In this document: positions 848-12,396 of the stretch, piece after piece
Numbering within the stretch: position 1 is the first letter of the stretch
Layout of the letters: each line of letters opens with the position of its first letter
Origin: an uncultured Candidatus Rokubacteria bacterium
GTDB taxonomy: Bacteria > Methylomirabilota > Methylomirabilia > Rokubacteriales > CSP1-6
Reading direction: 5' to 3'
Assembly (NCBI GenBank): GCA_963758635.1
Contig: CAVWWD010000003.1
Span: 928,001-992,000 of the forward strand
DNA length: 64,000 nt
Notes under the pieces: model-generated
What the model was told of the DNA's origin: nothing
The model's database searches: none
Seen by the model: the letters and a program-made list of their open reading frames with translations, nothing else
Translations under genes and position numbers: made by a program

Positions 848-1838
848 ATGATCCACGTCGACCATCTGACGAAGCGCTACGGGCCGGTCACGGCCATCCG
901 CGACGTCTCCTTCACGGTCGACGAGGGGAAGGTCGTCGGCTTCCTCGGCCCCAACGGGGCGGGCAAGTCGACGACGATGAAGATCCTCTCGTGCTTCATG
1001 CCGGCCTCGGGGGGCACCGCGACGGTGGCGGGCTTCGACGTCTTCCGCCAGTCGATGGAGGTGCGGCGCCGGATCGGGTACCTCCCGGAGAACGCCCCCC
1101 TCTACCTCGACCTCTCGGTGGCCGCGTACCTGGACTTCGTCGCCGAGATCAAGGGCGTGTCCCGTGGCGCGCGGAAGGCGCGGGTGGCCGAGGTGATGGA
1201 CCGGTGCTTCATCGCCGACATGAAGCACCGGACTGATCGGCAAGCTGTCGAAGGGCTACCGCCAGCGCGTGGGCCTCGCCCAGGCGCTCCTCGGCGATCC
1301 CAAGGTCCTGATCCTCGACGAGCCCACCATCGGGCTGGACCCGCGGCAGATCACCGACATCCGCGCGCTCATCAAGTCGCTGGCCGGGCAGCACACGGTG
1401 ATCCTGTCGACCCACATCCTCCCCGAGGTGCAGATGGTGTGCGACGGCATCGTGATCATCAACCGCGGCCGCATCGTGGCCCAGGGCACCCAGGCGCAGC
1501 TCGTCGAGCAGGTGTTCCCCACCGCGCGCGTGGAGCTGGCCGTGGGCGGACCCGCCGACGCCGTCGCCGCCGCGCTGCGCGCGGTGCCCGGCGTGCTCCG
1601 CGTGGCGCCCATCGAGCCCGTTGGCGCGCAGAACGGCGTGGTCGGCTTCGCCGTCGAGTCGCCCCGCGAGCACGACCTGCGCGAGGAGCTGGGCCGGCTC
1701 GTGCTCGCCCGCGGCTGGCGTCTCATCGAGCTGCACCAGGCCGGCCTCAGCCTGGAGGACGTGTTCATCCGCGTGGTCGCGGGCGAGGAGGCGGCGGAGA
1801 CGGCCACGATCGAGATGACCGCCGCCGAGGGCGCCTGA
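848..1838 (+). CDS. ABC-2 ATP-binding protein (GldA-like); frameshift near 1230
   Basis: Walker A GPNGAGKST; after the frameshift, LSKGYRQRVGLAQAL and ILDEPTIGLD. Confidence 0.88.
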
Positions 1839-2605
1839 TGCGCTGGCTCCCCGTGTTCAAGAAGGAGATGCGGCTGTACTTCGGCTCGCCCGTGGCCTAC
1901 GTGGTGTGCACGTTCTTCCTGGTCATCTCCGGCTTCTTCTTCAGCCAGATCTTCTACTTCTACACGATGCAGTCCATGCAGGCCACGATGAACCCCATGG
2001 CCGGCTCGAACCTGACGCCGACCGAGGGGATCCTCCGGCCGCTCTTCAACAACATGAGCGTGGTGCTGCTGTTCTTCATGCCGATGCTCACGATGCGGCT
2101 CTTCGCCGAGGAGGCGAAGTCGGGGACGATGGAGCTGCTGCTGACCTATCCGGTGCGGGACGGCGAGATCCTGTTCGGCAAGTTCCTCGCCGCCGGCCTC
2201 CTGTACGCGCTCATGCTGGCCTTGACCCTGCTCTATCCGGGCCTGGTCGGGCGCTTCGCGCGGCTCGAGTGGGGCAGCGTCCTCACCGGGTACCTCGGCA
2301 TGCTCCTCCTCGGCGCGGCGTTCCTCAGCATCGGGATCTTCCTGTCCGCCCTCACCGAGAACCAGATCGTCGCCGGCTTCTCCACGTTCGGCGTGCTGCT
2401 GGGGCTCTGGGTCATCGGCTGGGGCGCGGAGTTCGCGAGCGGCACCCTGCGGAGCGTGCTTCAGTACCTCTCCCTGATCGAGCACATGGACGGCTTCGGC
2501 AAGGGCGTGCTCGACACCAAGGACATCGTCTACTACGTCTCGGTGAGCGCGTTCGCCCTGTTCCTGGCCCTGCGCGCCGTCGAGGCGAAGCGCTGGAAGG
2601 GATAG
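1838..2605 (+). CDS. ABC-2 permease (GldF-like)
   Basis: MRWLPVFKKEMRLYFGSPVAY, TMRLFAEEAKSGTMELLLTYP, multiple TM helices; start overlaps upstream stop. Confidence 0.9.
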   Translation: MRWLPVFKKEMRLYFGSPVAYVVCTFFLVISGFFFSQIFYFYTMQSMQATMNPMAGSNLTPTEGILRPLFNNMSVVLLFFMPMLTMRLFAEEAKSGTMELLLTYPVRDGEILFGKFLAAGLLYALMLALTLLYPGLVGRFARLEWGSVLTGYLGMLLLGAAFLSIGIFLSALTENQIVAGFSTFGVLLGLWVIGWGAEFASGTLRSVLQYLSLIEHMDGFGKGVLDTKDIVYYVSVSAFALFLALRAVEAKRWKG

Positions 2606-2609
2606 TGGC

Positions 2610-4250
2610 GTGAGCGCGCTGAAGGCGTGGATCGGCCCGCTCGGCGTGGCGTGTCTCGTGGGCGCCGGCGCCGTGTTCCTGTTCGTGCCCTGGCTGGAGC
2701 GCCTCCGCTGGGCGCTCCTGATCGCGGGCGTCCTGGCTCTCCTCGTCGCGGTGGCGCTCAACGCGCGCGAGCTGGGCGCCGTCCTCGGGCGCCGCTCCGC
2801 CCGCTACGGCCTCGGCCTCGGCGTGACCGCGCTCCTCGCCCTGGCCGTGCTCGTGTTCGCCAACGCGGTGTCGGTCCGGCACAGCGCGCGCTGGGACTTC
2901 ACCGAGAACCGGCGGCACAGCCTCTCGCCGCAAACCCTCAAGATCCTGAAGGGGCTCACGACGCCGGTGCAGGCCATCGCGTTCCCGCGCACCGACACCA
3001 CGAGCAAGCAGAAGACCGAGGACCTCCTCAAGCTCTACGCCGCGTACTCGAGCGGGAAGTTCACGTGGCGGGTGGAGGACCCGGATCGCTCTCCGGGCCT
3101 GGCGCGGCGCTACGGCATCGAGAGCTACGGGACGGTGGTGCTCGAGCGGGCGGGCAAGGGCGAGGCCCGGTCCGAGAAGATCCTCGACGCCGAAGAGGAG
3201 AAGGTGACCAACGGCCTCGTCAAGCTCACCCGGGACGGCAAGCGCGTGATCTACGTCCTCAAGGGGCACGGCGAGCTCGACCCCGCGAACGCGGAGCGGC
3301 CGGGCATGAGCCAGGCGAAGGAGCAGATGGAGAAGGTCAACTACGAGGTGCGGGAGCTCATCCTCGCCCGGGAGGCCAAGGTCCCGGCCGAGGCCGCCAT
3401 CGTGGTGGTGCCAGGGCCGAAGAACGATCTCCTCCCCCCCGAGCTGGAGGCGCTCGACGCGTACATCGCCCGGGGCGGCAAGGTCTTCTTCATGCTCGCG
3501 CCGTTCGAGGCCGATGGGCTTGCCAAGCACCTGGCCCGGTACGGGCTCGAGGTGGCCGACGACCTCGTCATCGAGACCAACCCGGTGGGCCGCCTCTTCA
3601 ACGTGGGGCCGGAGGTGCCCGTCGTCACCCAGTACGAGGGCCATCCGATCACCCGGGAGCTCGGGAACACGATGACGTTCTTCCCCCTCACGCGCTCGAT
3701 CGAGCCGGCCAAGACGCCACCGAAGGGGATCGTGGTGCAGGCCCTCGCCCGGACGAGCGCGCAGTCCTGGGGGGAGACCGACCGGGCGGCGCTCCGGCGC
3801 GGCGAGGTGCAGTTCGACGGTAAGGACCGCAAGGGCCCGCTGCCCGTGGCCGCGGTCGCCACGATCGAGGTCACCGCGGCGCCCGCGCCCGCCGGCAAGG
3901 CCGAGGGCGCCGGCAAGGGTGACGCGACCGGCAAGGGCGAGGCGGGCAAGGGGGACGGCGCCGAGCCGAAGCCCGCGCGCGCGCGGATCGTGGTCATCGG
4001 CACCGCGAACCTGGCCTCGAACCAGTTCCTCGCCGCCCAGGGCAACCGTGACTTCTTCCTGAACGTGATTTCCTGGCTCGCCGAGGAGGAAGACCTCCTC
4101 TCGATCCGACCCCGGGAGGCCACGGCCGCGCCGATCATCCTGACGGCCGCGCAGTCGCAGATGGTGTTCTGGCTGCCGGTCGTCGTGCTGCCGCTGGCGA
4201 TCGTCGCCTCCGGCATCGTGGTGAGGGTGCGCCGGCGGCGCGCCGGCTGA
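2610..4250 (+). CDS. GldG-like ABC auxiliary membrane protein
   Basis: N-terminal TMs, RWDFTENRRHSLS, GHGE, GNRDFFLNVISWL, C-terminal TM. Confidence 0.88.
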   Translation: MSALKAWIGPLGVACLVGAGAVFLFVPWLERLRWALLIAGVLALLVAVALNARELGAVLGRRSARYGLGLGVTALLALAVLVFANAVSVRHSARWDFTENRRHSLSPQTLKILKGLTTPVQAIAFPRTDTTSKQKTEDLLKLYAAYSSGKFTWRVEDPDRSPGLARRYGIESYGTVVLERAGKGEARSEKILDAEEEKVTNGLVKLTRDGKRVIYVLKGHGELDPANAERPGMSQAKEQMEKVNYEVRELILAREAKVPAEAAIVVVPGPKNDLLPPELEALDAYIARGGKVFFMLAPFEADGLAKHLARYGLEVADDLVIETNPVGRLFNVGPEVPVVTQYEGHPITRELGNTMTFFPLTRSIEPAKTPPKGIVVQALARTSAQSWGETDRAALRRGEVQFDGKDRKGPLPVAAVATIEVTAAPAPAGKAEGAGKGDATGKGEAGKGDGAEPKPARARIVVIGTANLASNQFLAAQGNRDFFLNVISWLAEEEDLLSIRPREATAAPIILTAAQSQMVFWLPVVVLPLAIVASGIVVRVRRRRAG

Positions 4251-4260
4251 CGCCCTCCGC

Positions 4261-6027
4261 ATGAGCTGGAAGACCTTCGCGGCGCTCGTCGTCCTCGCCG
4301 CCGGCTTCGGCGCCTTCTACGCCTACGACACGTACTGGCTCTTGCCCGCCCGCGACAAGGCGGAGACGGTCAAGGGCCGCCTCTGGCAGGTCGAGGCCAA
4401 GGACGTGGAGACGGTCACCATCAAGCGCAAGAGCGAGACGCTGAAGCTCGCCCGCGCCGGCGACGGCTGGGAGATGCTCGAGCCGGTCAAGGCGCGCGCC
4501 GATCGCGGCGCCGTCGACGGGCTCGTCACCAGCCTCACCACGGTGCGCGTCGATCGAGAGATCGATCCCTCGCCCGCGAAGCTCACCGACTTCGGCCTCG
4601 ACGCGCCGGACGCCGAGGTCACGATGCAGGTGAAGGGTCAGAAGGAGCCCCTCGCCCTGCTCCTCGGGGGCAAGAGCCCGACGGGCGCGTGGGTCTACGG
4701 CAAGGAGGCGGCCAAGCCCGCGGTGCTCGCGCTCTCGGACTCCGTCTCGCGCGAAGCGGCCCGTCCGGTGCCCGAGCTGCGCGACAAGACCGTGCTCGCC
4801 TTCGATCGCAAGAGCGTCACGGCCATGGACCTCGAGGTCGGCGGGGACCAGATCTCGCTCGAGGCGCAGGACGGCGGGAAGTGGCGGATCGTCAAGCCGC
4901 GGGACTTCGCCGGCGACCCCGACGTCGTGGCCGAGTTCCTCGACAAGCTCGGCGCGGCCAAGGCCGTCGAGTTCGTGGCCGGCGTCGACAAGCCCGCCCA
5001 GTACGGCCTCGACAAGCCGGCCAGGCTCACGCTGTGGACGGGGAAGGACAAGGACCGCGCCTCCAAGGCCCTCCTGTTCGGCCGGCCCGTGCCGGACAAG
5101 AAGGGCGTCTACGTGATGCGCCCCGGCGAGGCCGAGGCCATGCTGACCGGCGAGGAGGTCTGGACGGCCTTTCCGAAAACCGTCGCCGCGCTCCGCAACA
5201 AGGTCGTCGTCACCTACGCGTACGACAAGGTGAAGCGCCTCGACCTCGAGAGCTCGAAGGGCCCCGTGTCGATCGAGAAGGAGGCGTCGGGCTGGAAGCT
5301 CACCGGCCCCGAGACGCTCAAGGCGGACACGGGCGCGGTCACCTCGCTCCTCTGGCGCCTGCGCGACCTGCGCGCCTCCGGGTTCCTGGCCGAGGAGGCG
5401 GCCGACATCCCGCGCTACCTGGCCCGTCCCGAGGTCACGGTGCGCATCTGGGAGGAGGGAGCCAAGGAGCCCCGCACGGTGCTCCTCGGCGCCTCGAAGG
5501 AGGTCCGCGGCGGAGCGCCGGCGGCGGTGGCCGCGGTCGCTGGCCAGGGGCCGGTGATGCTCGTCGACGGCAAGGCGCTCCAGGACTTGGCCAAGACGAC
5601 CGACGACCTGCGCGACAAGTCGCTCGTCCCCGCGTTCGACCTGGGCGACCTGAAGGGCGCCCGGCTGTCCGCGGGCGGCAAGCGCATCGTGGTCGAGCGC
5701 GTCGGCGACCTCGACTGGAAGCTGGTCGAGCCCCGCGGCTCGCTCAAGGCGGGCAAGGTCACCGACGTCCTCCTGGCCGTGAAGGGCCTCGCCTGGAAGG
5801 CCATCGTCTCGCCGAAGGGCGACGACGCGGCGCGGTTCGGGCTCGACACACCCCAGGCCGAGGTGACGCTGATCAAGCGCGACGGGACGGAGCTCGCCAC
5901 GCTCCTCGTCGGCCGCGACGAGGGCGACGTGTCCTACGTCCGGCTGAAGTCCGGCCCGGCGATCTACTCGGTGGACGGCAAGGCGATCGGCGACATCAGG
6001 AAGGCGCCGGCCGAGATCCCCGGCTGA
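4261..6027 (+). CDS. DUF4340 repeat-domain protein
   Basis: N-terminal anchor; repeated FGLDAP/YGLDKP/FGLDTP and LRDK/LRNK units; follows GldG. Confidence 0.82.
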   Translation: MSWKTFAALVVLAAGFGAFYAYDTYWLLPARDKAETVKGRLWQVEAKDVETVTIKRKSETLKLARAGDGWEMLEPVKARADRGAVDGLVTSLTTVRVDREIDPSPAKLTDFGLDAPDAEVTMQVKGQKEPLALLLGGKSPTGAWVYGKEAAKPAVLALSDSVSREAARPVPELRDKTVLAFDRKSVTAMDLEVGGDQISLEAQDGGKWRIVKPRDFAGDPDVVAEFLDKLGAAKAVEFVAGVDKPAQYGLDKPARLTLWTGKDKDRASKALLFGRPVPDKKGVYVMRPGEAEAMLTGEEVWTAFPKTVAALRNKVVVTYAYDKVKRLDLESSKGPVSIEKEASGWKLTGPETLKADTGAVTSLLWRLRDLRASGFLAEEAADIPRYLARPEVTVRIWEEGAKEPRTVLLGASKEVRGGAPAAVAAVAGQGPVMLVDGKALQDLAKTTDDLRDKSLVPAFDLGDLKGARLSAGGKRIVVERVGDLDWKLVEPRGSLKAGKVTDVLLAVKGLAWKAIVSPKGDDAARFGLDTPQAEVTLIKRDGTELATLLVGRDEGDVSYVRLKSGPAIYSVDGKAIGDIRKAPAEIPG

Positions 6028-6140
6028 CCGGCCGGGCGGGGCTCCCAACCGCCCCGGGGAACCGCGCGCGGCTCTCGGCGGTTAGCCATGCGTCCGTGGG
6101 CGGACGCGCATCTTCCTCAAACCAACGGAAGGAGATCGGC

Positions 6141-6701
6141 ATGACCAGGAGACGGCACCTCACGTGCGCCGTCCTGGCGGGCATGATCGGGATCCTGGCC
6201 CTGGCCGGCGTCGCGCACGCGCAGACGCTCGAGGTCGGCCAGAAGGCCCCCGATTTCACGCTCGCCGGGCCGGGCAACAAGCCCGTGAAGCTCTCGGAGC
6301 TGCTCGGGAAGGGCCCCGTCGTCGTCTACACGTTCATCCAGGCCTTCACCGCGACCTGAATCAAGGAGATCGGCGACTTCGAGGCGAACCTCGCCCAGTT
6401 CGAAGCCGCCAACGCCCAGGTCGTGGGTGTGAGCGCCGATCACGTTGCGACCCTCGATGCCTTCCGCAAGGCCAACCCGACCAAGCACCTGCTGCTCTCC
6501 GACTTCCGGCGCACCATGCTGCCGGCATGGGGCGCGCTGAACACCGACGAGAAGAGCCCGATCTTCCGCTACGCCAAGCGGACGTGGTTCATCCTCGACC
6601 GCGAGGGCACCGTCCGGTGGAAGAAGATCAACGACAACGCGCTGGACCTCCTCAAGGCCGACGAGGTGCTCAAGGCGCTCAAGGACTCGGGCGCGTCATG
6701 A
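6141..6701 (+). CDS. Exported peroxiredoxin (AhpC/TSA family), predicted selenoprotein; Sec at TGA 6357-6359
   Basis: SD GGAG, signal peptide, VGQKAPDFTL, FIQAFTAT-TGA-IKEI continuing in-frame to VVGVSAD, LLSDF and KRTWFILDREG; hairpin 6372-6410. Confidence 0.88.
6372..6410 (+). promoter_or_regulatory. Candidate bacterial SECIS hairpin
   Basis: GGCG-A-CTTCGA-GGCGA-ACC-TCGCC-CAGT-TCGAAG-C-CGCC begins 12 nt after the in-frame TGA. Confidence 0.55.
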
Positions 6702-7225
6702 CACGGTCCGTCGCCGCCATGGCGCTGGCGCTCGTCGTGAGCGCCATGGCGGTGGCGTCCGCCGCCGCGCCCGCGTTCGAGCTCAACACGTACGCCCCGC
6801 GGAAGGCCGCGCCCGCGTTCTCCCTGCCCAACCTCGACGGGCGCGGGGTGTCCCTGGAGAGCCTCCGGGGAAAGGTCGTCCTCCTCTTCTTCTGGGCCAC
6901 CTGGTGACCGACCTGCCGGAAGGAGTTGCCTTCCGTCAATCGGCTGCACACGGAGTTGAAGGATCGGGGGCTCGAGGTCGTGCTGGTGACGTTCCGGGAG
7001 TCGCCCGAGGTCGTGGCGCGGGCGGTGCGCGAGCGCGGCTACGTCGCCCCCGTGCTGATCGACGCGAGCGGCGACGTCACGGGCAGGCTCTACGGTGTCT
7101 TCGGCCCCCCCACCGCGTACCTGATCGACCGTAAGGGACAGCTCGTCGCGCGGATCGTCGGCGAGCGCGACTGGTCGACCCCGGAGGCGCGGGCCACGCT
7201 CTCGCGCCTGCTCGAGGAAAGGTAA
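6698..7225 (+). CDS. Exported TlpA/ResA-type thiol-disulfide oxidoreductase, predicted selenoprotein; Sec at TGA 6905-6907
   Basis: Signal peptide, APAFSLPNLDG, RGKVVLLFFWATW-TGA-PTCRKELP (WCxxC equivalent), YGVFGPPTAYLIDRKG; ATGA overlap with the upstream gene. Confidence 0.9.
6917..6935 (+). promoter_or_regulatory. Candidate bacterial SECIS hairpin
   Basis: CGGAAGG-AGTTG-CCTTCCG, perfect 7-bp stem with loop 16 nt after the TGA. Confidence 0.65.
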
Positions 7226-7235
7226 ACTGACCGCC

Positions 7236-7919
7236 GTGACCGACACGCTCTACCTGAAGCAGATGGAGCTGGGCCCGATGCAGAACTTCGTCTACCTCAT
7301 CGGCGACCCGGAGACCCGCGACTGCGTGGCCGTCGACCCGGCGTGGGACATCGACGCCGTGCTCGACGAGGTCGCCGCCGACGGCATGCGCCTGACCGGC
7401 GTGCTCGTGACCCACACGCATCAGGATCACGTGGGCGGCCACCTCTTCGGTCACGACATCCCCGGCATCGCCGAGCTGATGCAGCGGAGCCCGGCGAAGG
7501 TCTACGTCCACAAGGCGGAGCGCGAGTTCCTCAAGGGCTACGGCGGGGACGTCGTCAAGGTGGACGGCGGCGACACGCTCTCCGTCGGCCGGATCCCCGT
7601 GACGTTCCTGCACACGCCCGGGCACACCCCGGGGTCGCAGTGCTTCCTGGTGGACGGCCGGCTCATTTCGGGCGACACGCTGTTCATCCGCTCGTGCGGC
7701 CGCACGGACCTGCCGGGCAGCGATCCGTCGGAGATGTACCGCTCGCTCACCCAGCGGCTCGGGGTGCTGCCGGACGACACCGTGGTCTTTCCCGGCCACA
7801 ACTACGGCGGCGCCGCGACGACCATCGGCGACGAGAAGCGCGAGAACCCGATGATGCGCTTTCCGTCGATGGGCGACTTCCTTCGCGTCATGGGCGGCGG
7901 GCGCATCGTCCGGCCGTAG
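7236..7919 (+). CDS. MBL-fold metallo-hydrolase (glyoxalase II-like)
   Basis: THTHQDH, HTPGHTPGS, SGDTLF, PGHNY motifs. Confidence 0.9.
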   Translation: MTDTLYLKQMELGPMQNFVYLIGDPETRDCVAVDPAWDIDAVLDEVAADGMRLTGVLVTHTHQDHVGGHLFGHDIPGIAELMQRSPAKVYVHKAEREFLKGYGGDVVKVDGGDTLSVGRIPVTFLHTPGHTPGSQCFLVDGRLISGDTLFIRSCGRTDLPGSDPSEMYRSLTQRLGVLPDDTVVFPGHNYGGAATTIGDEKRENPMMRFPSMGDFLRVMGGGRIVRP

Positions 7920-11690: not shown

Positions 11691-12288
11691 TTAGCGTGCC
11701 TTCACCAGGAAGTGGGCGTGCCGGTTGCGCTGCCAGCAACTCTCGCTCTTCTCGGTGCACACCGGGCGCTCCTCGCCGTAGGAGATGATCGTGATGCGAT
11801 TGGCCTGGACGCCCTGGGTCACCAGGTAGTTCATCGTCGCCTTCGCCCGGCGCTCGCCGAGCGCCAGGTTGTACTCGTTCGTGCCGCGCTCGTCACAGTG
11901 TCCCTCGATCAGGACCAGCATGGTGCCGTTCGACTTGAGCCAGCTCGAGTTGTCGTCGAGGATCTTCGCGTCGCTCGGACGGATGTCGTACTTATCGAAG
12001 TCGAAGTACACGTCCTTGAGCGCCGTGTTCTCCGCGAACTCGCTGGGCGCGGGCGGCGTCGCGGGCGCGGCGGTCGCCGGCGCGGGCGGCGGGGGCCGGC
12101 GCGGGGGCGGAGGCCGACGGCGTCGACGGTGAGGCGGCCGCAGGGGCGCTCGGGGCCATCGCGGCGGGGGCCGCGGGAGCCGGTGCGGATGCCGCCGTCG
12201 TGGCGGGCCGCTTCGGGCACCCCACCAGGAACAGCGCGGCGATGAGCAGGGGCATCACCAGGAGCGAGCTACCGCGTCCGTGCCGCAT
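11691..12288 (-). CDS. pal: Peptidoglycan-associated lipoprotein; frameshift near 12080
   Basis: LVGC lipobox; VYFDFDK, IEGHCDERGTNEYNLALGERRA, ISYGEERP. Confidence 0.92.
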
Positions 12289-12396
12289 AGCCTCACATCC
12301 TCCTTGTGAACAACCGTTGGAGCCCGACCGGGCCATCGAAAGAGCGTCCCGCCGCGGGATCGCCGATGTCCTCGCTAACTTTTCGCCGAGAGTCTA

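Follow-up and report, generated by a model that had tools for sequence, protein, structure and literature searches.

Two coupled genes of a Rokubacteria genome encode a predicted exported Sec peroxiredoxin-fold protein and a Sec TlpA-like partner

Peroxide reduction in the bacterial cell envelope has a Cys-based prototype in Caulobacter crescentus, where electrons flow from ScsB through TlpA to the peroxiredoxin PprX; in the same account, the PxxxTxxC motif of peroxiredoxins is described as absolutely conserved (PMC3322552). Bacterial peroxiredoxins with selenocysteine (Sec) in place of the peroxidatic Cys (PF00578, TxxU), such as PrxU of Eubacterium acidaminophilum, are catalogued (Table 1 of PMC13188914; PMC2398784), as are UxxC redoxin, peroxiredoxin-like and thiol-disulfide isomerase-like selenoprotein families (PMC13188914). 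Neighbouring selenoprotein genes are known for peroxiredoxin/SelW and, in one case, for peroxiredoxin/peroxiredoxin-like 2 (PMC2398784; PMC13188914), and as many as 63 selenoproteins have been predicted in one Methylomirabilota MAG (Deng et al. 2026 Cell Rep, via PMC13188914). A Sec enzyme that is served by a Sec reductant is represented by the Cys-free 1-Sec MsrA of Clostridium (Alkaliphilus) oremlandii, for which the Sec glutaredoxin Grx1 serves as reductant (PMC4479559). Both protein families, the Cys-type envelope pathway and the Sec-enzyme/Sec-reductant precedent are already published. No description of an exported Pro-less Sec peroxiredoxin coupled to TlpA was found in the literature searched; these genes may be listed in the supplementary data of Deng et al. 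(2026), and the deep-Sep paper contains none of the terms searched for on the pair (PMC12013277).

The pair lies in a window of 64,000 nucleotides from a soil Rokubacteria-type genome (G000), and all of its features are on the + strand. Gene 1 (6141–6701; 186 aa), preceded by a Shine-Dalgarno-like AGGAG (6130–6134) 6 nt 5' of its ATG, would encode a single-Sec peroxiredoxin-fold protein of BCP/PrxQ-AhpE-like type with the motif IxxxTxxU. Its in-frame TGA (6357–6359; context FIQAFTAT-U-IKE) corresponds to the predicted Sec73. The gene 1 stop TGA (6699–6701) shares an ATGA (6698–6701) with the ATG of gene 2 at 6698, and this translational coupling, noted in an earlier sequence-only reading of the locus, extends to the orthologs, gene 2 starting at an overlapping RTGA in 22 of the 24 loci. 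Gene 2 (6698–7225, ending in TAA at 7223–7225; 175 aa) would encode a TlpA/ResA-like thioredoxin-fold protein with the active site WATW-U-PTC and cis-Pro138. Its in-frame TGA (6905–6907) corresponds to the predicted Sec70, the attacking residue of UxxC, and the resolving Cys73 (6914–6916) is invariant in 29/29 aligned sequences. That reading had also held that each gene is interrupted by the TGA and that the fold resumes in frame; consistently, the read-through products form complete AhpC/TSA-Redoxin domains (Pfam E 4e-26 for gene 1 and 1e-26 for gene 2). The two codons fall where it had placed them, U73 aligning with the peroxidatic Cys of BCP/PrxQ structures and the TGA of gene 2 occupying the attacking-Cys column.

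Both proteins are predicted to be exported, as judged by n-, h- and c-region features, in agreement with the signal peptides proposed earlier. The predicted signal peptide of gene 1 (6141–6221) has an RRR n-region, a hydrophobic h-region and a cleavage site between AHA and Q, and that of gene 2 (6698–6763) would be cleaved near ASA before A, an approximate position. In 24/24 gene 1 orthologs, a basic n-region, a hydrophobic h-region and a small-residue cleavage motif precede LEVG, and the A-x-A-type end lies directly before it.

The pair resembles the Caulobacter PprX pathway in combining an exported BCP/PrxQ-type peroxiredoxin fold with an exported TlpA (export here being predicted from sequence features) and in having a DsbD/ScsB-type conduit in the genome, beside a PrxL-like gene (PMC3322552). 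PprX, however, is a Cys enzyme with an intact PxxxTxxC motif and a resolving Cys, whereas gene 1 has Sec, has lost the Pro and has no resolving Cys; Sec at both active sites and translational coupling also set the present pair apart. With the catalogued Sec-peroxiredoxin and UxxC families it shares Sec in place of the peroxidatic or the attacking Cys and, for gene 2, a downstream bSECIS, but a conserved PxxxTxxU is described for the catalogued Sec peroxiredoxins, whereas in the gene 1 clade the motif is IxxxTxxU, signal peptides are predicted and the TlpA partner is fixed (PMC13188914; PMC2398784). Like MsrA and Grx1 of C. oremlandii, the pair combines a Cys-free single-Sec enzyme with a UxxC thioredoxin-fold selenoprotein; that system, as described, is cytoplasmic, glutathione-linked and directed at methionine sulfoxide, whereas the enzyme considered here would be exported and linked to DsbD/CcdA, and has a peroxiredoxin fold (PMC4479559). 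Gene 1 is also similar in sequence, fold and AFT-x-x-C/U motif to the 1-Cys AhpE of Mycobacterium tuberculosis (1xvw, E 1e-7) and to archaeal PrxQ/Bcp4, but these are cytoplasmic Cys enzymes that keep the Pro, and their identity to gene 1 is only about 28–37%.

The fold of gene 1 is that of a peroxiredoxin. BCP/PrxQ structures are the best sequence matches (2cx3, E 2e-24, with 2ywn and 3hjp also among the best), and an AlphaFold model (pLDDT 90) is structurally closest to Bcp4 (3hjp; TM 0.77/0.90) and PrxQ. Arg147 (6579–6581), the peroxiredoxin active-site Arg, is invariant in 28/28 aligned sequences. Scores against NCBIfam models are all below their cut-offs (PrxU NF040737, 28.5/270; Prx-SUH NF045827, 38.7/298; BCP, 51.7/140). 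The replacement of the Pro of PxxxTxxC by Ile, pointed out in the sequence-only reading, is borne out by Ile66 (6336–6338), and Pro is present at this position (-7) in none of 24 orthologs, 23 having Ile and one Val. At position -3, Thr70 is retained as Thr in 17/24, with Asn in 5/24 and Ala in 2/24. The mature chain has no Cys in 24/24 orthologs, as had been noticed for gene 1 itself, whose sole Cys is residue 9, within the predicted signal peptide. In the absence of the Pro at -7, gene 1 is classed as a non-canonical protein of peroxiredoxin fold rather than as a canonical peroxiredoxin. Thus, it lacks one of the features that define canonical peroxiredoxins, yet most likely works like one, and a hydroperoxide is its presumed substrate, a qualification that the non-canonical motif calls for.

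The Pro is also missing in Sec forms outside the gene 1 clade. Among the best matches of 80 loci, 36 have Sec without Pro, 3 Sec with Pro (e.g., FYPLDWTPGU in L178), 34 Cys with Pro and 7 Cys without Pro; the Pro is therefore missing in 36/39 Sec loci versus 7/41 Cys loci, counts that include non-independent kin. Pro-less Sec forms occur in several parts of the tree (FastTree), including the gene 1 clade, Acidobacteriota and Anaeromyxobacteraceae, and this loss in separate Sec lineages would fit a relaxation of the motif by Sec. Four natural Cys forms of gene 1, Cys forms nested in the gene 1 clade and archaeal Cys groups lack the Pro as well, so that its loss does not depend strictly on Sec. 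In Acidobacteriota, Pro-less Sec-peroxiredoxin genes also occur in tandem (L092, L095, L096, L098, L099, L115 and L119), FYVLAFTGGU being combined with FYIKAFTPGU or FYIRASTPGU, and an Hsp20 gene adjoins in three of these loci.

Gene 2 combines WxxWUxxC, the cis-Pro, an N-terminal export signal and an AhpC-TSA/Redoxin domain. ResA is its best NCBIfam match (101 bits against a cut-off of 170), and WAxxUGC_long scores 76 against 300; as every score is below cut-off, the protein is described as ResA/TlpA-like and not as a named ortholog. A second exported Sec-TlpA (WAGW-U-PHC) is present at G000:C8:466122 (+) with a SECIS of the same kind (GAGGG-AGUUU-CCCUC), and no peroxiredoxin match adjoins it in the locus examined.

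Both UGAs are very likely read as selenocysteine, given the decoding machinery, the conservation of the TGAs, the interchange of Sec and Cys, and the SECIS of gene 2. All four genes whose presence was to be checked are located in the source genome: tRNA-Sec (selC) at C10:238999, an intact selB, selA (G000:C10:236142–237487; L001/L002), which is broken at a G run, and selD (C3:51092–52010; L011/L014), which is frameshifted. Further frameshifts occur in the window, in an ABC ATPase gene (991–1838) and a pal-like gene (11691–12336), and all four look like indel errors of the assembly. The G000 assembly alone is therefore insufficient, and its relatives settle the TGA question. SelD of this genome is itself a Cys form (CGGCAAK). 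Of 41 draft genomes, 33 contain a selB match that scores above the cut-off. In these 41 genomes, 26/26 near-full-length gene 1 orthologs (at least 55% identity; 24 genomes) have one TGA, which occupies the same column in 24/24 extracted orthologs, and 28 of 29 gene 2 matches with E<1e-55 have one TGA. The remaining match is a TGC paralog (L066; G037:C110:17920) on the same contig as a Sec pair. In a search of 251 genomes of the phylum, 183 genomes match the gene 1 alignment, which includes four paralogs, at E<=1e-45; the best 150 matches, beyond which lie 147 weaker ones, all have one TGA, a count of the presence of one TGA per match and not of its column. The named relatives belong to Methylomirabilota/Rokubacteria. 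In one ortholog locus (L040; G027:C38), the N-terminal half of gene 1, including the Sec codon, is replaced by an unrelated frame and the Sec-TlpA gene is intact.

Contigs from independent runs also keep both codons: a DNA run (X1) covers 6321–6571 with one difference (6526) and an RNA run (X17) covers 6832–6945 with none. Sequencing error or a chance TGA is ruled out by these contigs together with the ortholog conservation. Contigs from RNA runs span both genes and bridge their junction, and they are silent on the level of transcription and on whether the transcript is single. The expected TGA/Cys interchange is found for both genes, the natural Cys forms of gene 1 being P0003, P0004 and P0183–P0185.

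The hairpins that had been reported just after each TGA differ in strength: that of gene 2 is strong, whereas that of gene 1 is weak and non-canonical. In the published bSECIS model used for comparison (PMC13188914), the loop lies 16–37 nt after the UGA, with G in the first two loop positions and a stem of at least 4 bp. The gene 2 element CGGAAGG-[AGUUG]-CCUUCCG (6917–6935), whose loop lies 16 nt past the UGA with G at loop position 2, agrees with this model. Across orthologs, 96% of alignment cells are paired and 4/7 pairs show compensatory change; none of 500 shuffles reaches this pairing, a figure inflated by close kin. At most 2.5% of synonymous variants are as good, in 23/23 orthologs. 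The hairpin contains Leu TTG/TTA in 25/25 and Pro CCT in 25/25, codons with genome-wide frequencies of 1.9% and 4.0%, respectively, so that these rare codons appear to maintain the hairpin; in the Cys paralog L066, both the SECIS and the rare codons are lost. Re-initiation at TTG 6926 after a true stop was rejected, as the GGAG there lacks spacing, TTA replaces TTG in 6/25 orthologs, and the SECIS loop accounts for the codon. For gene 1, a candidate non-canonical stem-loop lies at 6372–6410. The folding of each of the 23 distinct orthologs is more stable than that of synonymous variants (mean z -1.6), but only 4/23, all of one genus, have a hairpin of canonical form that beats 99% of variants, and in 6 of the 23 no such hairpin was detected; the hairpin of G000 is equalled by 21.5% of variants. 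A conserved canonical SECIS was thus not found for gene 1 across these 23 orthologs.

The unit of conservation is a two-gene cassette, given that flanking genes change between lineages and that no third conserved gene lies beside the pair. The downstream MBL-fold hydrolase gene (7236–7919) and the upstream ABC permease, GldG-like and DUF4340 genes (1838–6027) were considered as parts of the system and rejected, being beside the pair only in G000 among 30 loci. The orthologs are apart in two genomes (L032/L056 and L038/L062), and at one locus (L208) gene 2 is present with no gene 1 within 2.8 kb upstream. Besides the pair and its orthologs, in which the peroxiredoxin gene comes before the TlpA gene (type A), two related arrangements combine a Pro-less peroxiredoxin with a TlpA, both with predicted export. 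In type B (10 loci, in records labelled Planctomycetota, Acidobacteriota, Betaproteobacteria, Entotheonella and Rokubacteria), TlpA precedes the peroxiredoxin; TlpA has Sec in 6 and Cys in 4, and the peroxiredoxin has Sec in all 10. In type C (9 loci, chosen for adjacent matches and hence yielding no frequency), a peroxiredoxin with FYGxxFxPxU (Sec in 8, Cys in 1) precedes a Cys-TlpA; Gly is at -7 in 9/9, and Thr/Ser is absent in 7/9, including the all-Cys version. In the peroxiredoxin tree (FastTree), A and B form one group (support 97), as do A, B and C (93), so that the cassette types are not independent origins. In the TlpA tree, the partners group by cassette type, a pattern that inheritance and transfer of the pair as one unit would produce. 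These cassette data support a functional partnership of the two genes.

Membrane conduits that could supply electrons to the envelope are encoded in the source genome. A 693-aa DsbD_N/DsbD_TM/thioredoxin protein adjoins a PrxL-like gene (EWTNHDCPYV), the DsbD/ScsB-type gene directly preceding it (L177; G000:C8:58596–62231), which is the arrangement described for ScsB systems. A CcdA gene adjoins a Cys-TlpA gene, and VKOR and DsbA-like genes are present; DsbB was not found in this genome, which is 87% complete. The genome has 19 AhpC/TSA matches, several of them predicted to be exported, including further TlpA-like and peroxiredoxin-like proteins, so that other partners are possible.

The pair probably encodes a secreted enzyme that removes peroxides, together with the partner that recycles it. 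The reading preferred here, to which we assign a probability of about 0.6, is an envelope reductive relay from DsbD/CcdA through TlpA(U) to the 1-Sec peroxiredoxin and on to hydroperoxides. In this relay, SelB would decode both UGAs and both proteins would be exported, after which Sec73 of gene 1 would react with ROOH to give a selenenic acid. As the peroxiredoxin lacks a resolving Cys, Sec70 of TlpA would attack the selenenic acid and form a mixed diselenide; alternatively, the route might pass through a diselenide between two peroxiredoxin molecules, as in 1-Sec MsrA. Cys73 of TlpA would then resolve the mixed diselenide, leaving a selenenyl-sulfide on TlpA, which CcdA or DsbD/ScsB would re-reduce with electrons from cytoplasmic thioredoxin. 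The low pKa of Sec would probably explain how the Pro of PxxxTxxC, and in some members also the Thr, could be lost. The relay is supported by the peroxiredoxin fold, the invariant Arg, the Thr at -3 in 17/24, the conduits, the cassette and the precedents, and weakened by the loss of Pro in 24/24, the change of Thr in 7/24, the split orthologs and the weak gene 1 SECIS. The Sec-to-Sec form of the relay proposed in the sequence-only reading stands in that both partners have Sec codons, but it is not obligatory: 12 related cassettes combine a Sec peroxiredoxin with a Cys-TlpA, so that Sec on TlpA is not required alongside a Sec peroxiredoxin. A more far-reaching and only tentative possibility is a so far unrecognised exported single-Sec subfamily of the peroxiredoxin fold that is always fed by a dedicated TlpA, with Sec chemistry replacing PxxxT, possibly another substrate, and inter-protein diselenide turnover in the oxidising envelope of bacteria that are among the most common in soil.

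The loss of the motif residues also bears on the substrate. The pair might be a TlpA-fed exported selenoenzyme that does not act on hydroperoxides, its peroxiredoxin fold being retooled for another envelope electrophile, such as protein sulfenic or persulfide groups, reactive chlorine species, S- or N-oxides, or selenium or sulfur species. Pro is lost in all TlpA-paired members and Thr in many, even in Cys forms (FYGAAFVPTC in L134), and Caulobacter PrxL, an ScsB client without the motif residues, is reported to have shown no detectable peroxidase activity (PMC3322552). The invariance of Arg147 and the Thr retained in 17/24 type A orthologs argue the other way, and Pro is also lost in unrelated Sec-peroxiredoxin lineages that have no TlpA gene beside them, a pattern more in keeping with a motif relaxed by Sec than with a new substrate; a retooled substrate is considered somewhat improbable. 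That the two exported selenoproteins are merely co-expressed in one redox-stress unit and do not react with each other is unlikely: each could have its own reductant or client, for example with a small thiol or a different TlpA reducing the peroxiredoxin and with cytochrome c maturation or Msr served by the TlpA, and the several exported proteins among the 19 AhpC/TSA matches of G000 and the split orthologs in 2/24 genomes would agree with this, but the RTGA coupling is kept despite changing flanks, and both gene orders recur with mirrored TlpA groups.

The relay could also run in the oxidising direction, the Sec peroxiredoxin using peroxide to oxidise TlpA and, through it, envelope proteins or a sensor, for peroxide signalling or disulfide formation. 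A 1-Sec peroxiredoxin/thioredoxin-fold pair would be a chemically identical relay viewed from the other side, and no DsbB was detected in the 87% of the genome available. TlpA/ResA proteins, however, are reductases that receive electrons from CcdA/DsbD, both conduits are encoded in G000, and VKOR and DsbA-like genes are present for the oxidative branch, which makes an oxidising role very unlikely. Least credible, and by a wide measure improbable, is that the TGAs really end translation or result from errors, the genes being pseudogenes or split genes. The frameshifts elsewhere in the assembly (selA, selD) and the weak gene 1 SECIS might suggest it, but in many genera the TGA stays fixed at the catalytic column, with conservation both before and after it, natural homologs have Cys at that column, rare codons (TTG/TTA in 25/25, CCT in 25/25) uphold the gene 2 hairpin, selB exceeds its cut-off in 33/41 genomes, and the codons are intact in independent runs. 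That the two selenoprotein genes and their cassette are real is well supported, and their function is what we infer.

Standard annotation was expected to present such genes as fragments, and it does: among 120 listed database matches to the gene 1 family, 108 are C-terminal pieces, which are catalytically dead, 4 are Cys forms and 5 have Trp at the site. No U-containing entry is among these 120, and entries with U may not be retained in the collection. The entries with Trp at the Sec site (P0188–P0192), some of which read on past the TGA stop, come from gene callers that used a code with TGA as Trp.

The pair forms part of a large selenoproteome, as 8/19 AhpC/TSA matches in G000 contain a TGA. 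A heuristic scan of this genome yielded further selenoprotein candidates, putatively UGSC-type, AhpD-like, DsbA-like, rhodanese-like and PrdB/GrdB-like proteins. At G000:C8:410450 (-), a long ORF has an in-frame TGA within a segment rich in Cys (YRCPLRLTYP-U-CGIAC); this TGA may reflect either an error or a selenoprotein that is not yet listed.

If the preferred relay is correct, envelope peroxide defence by peroxiredoxins, shown for the Caulobacter Cys enzyme, would gain a Sec form in Rokubacteria and several other phyla, represented by a protein family that is hidden from databases, mostly as C-terminal fragments. The natural U/U, U/C and C/C pairs would provide a test of what Sec gives to an enzyme and to its reductant. 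Together with these Sec/Cys combinations, the recurrent loss of the 'invariant' peroxiredoxin Pro in Sec lineages would make the question of why Sec is used instead of Cys testable in one pair.
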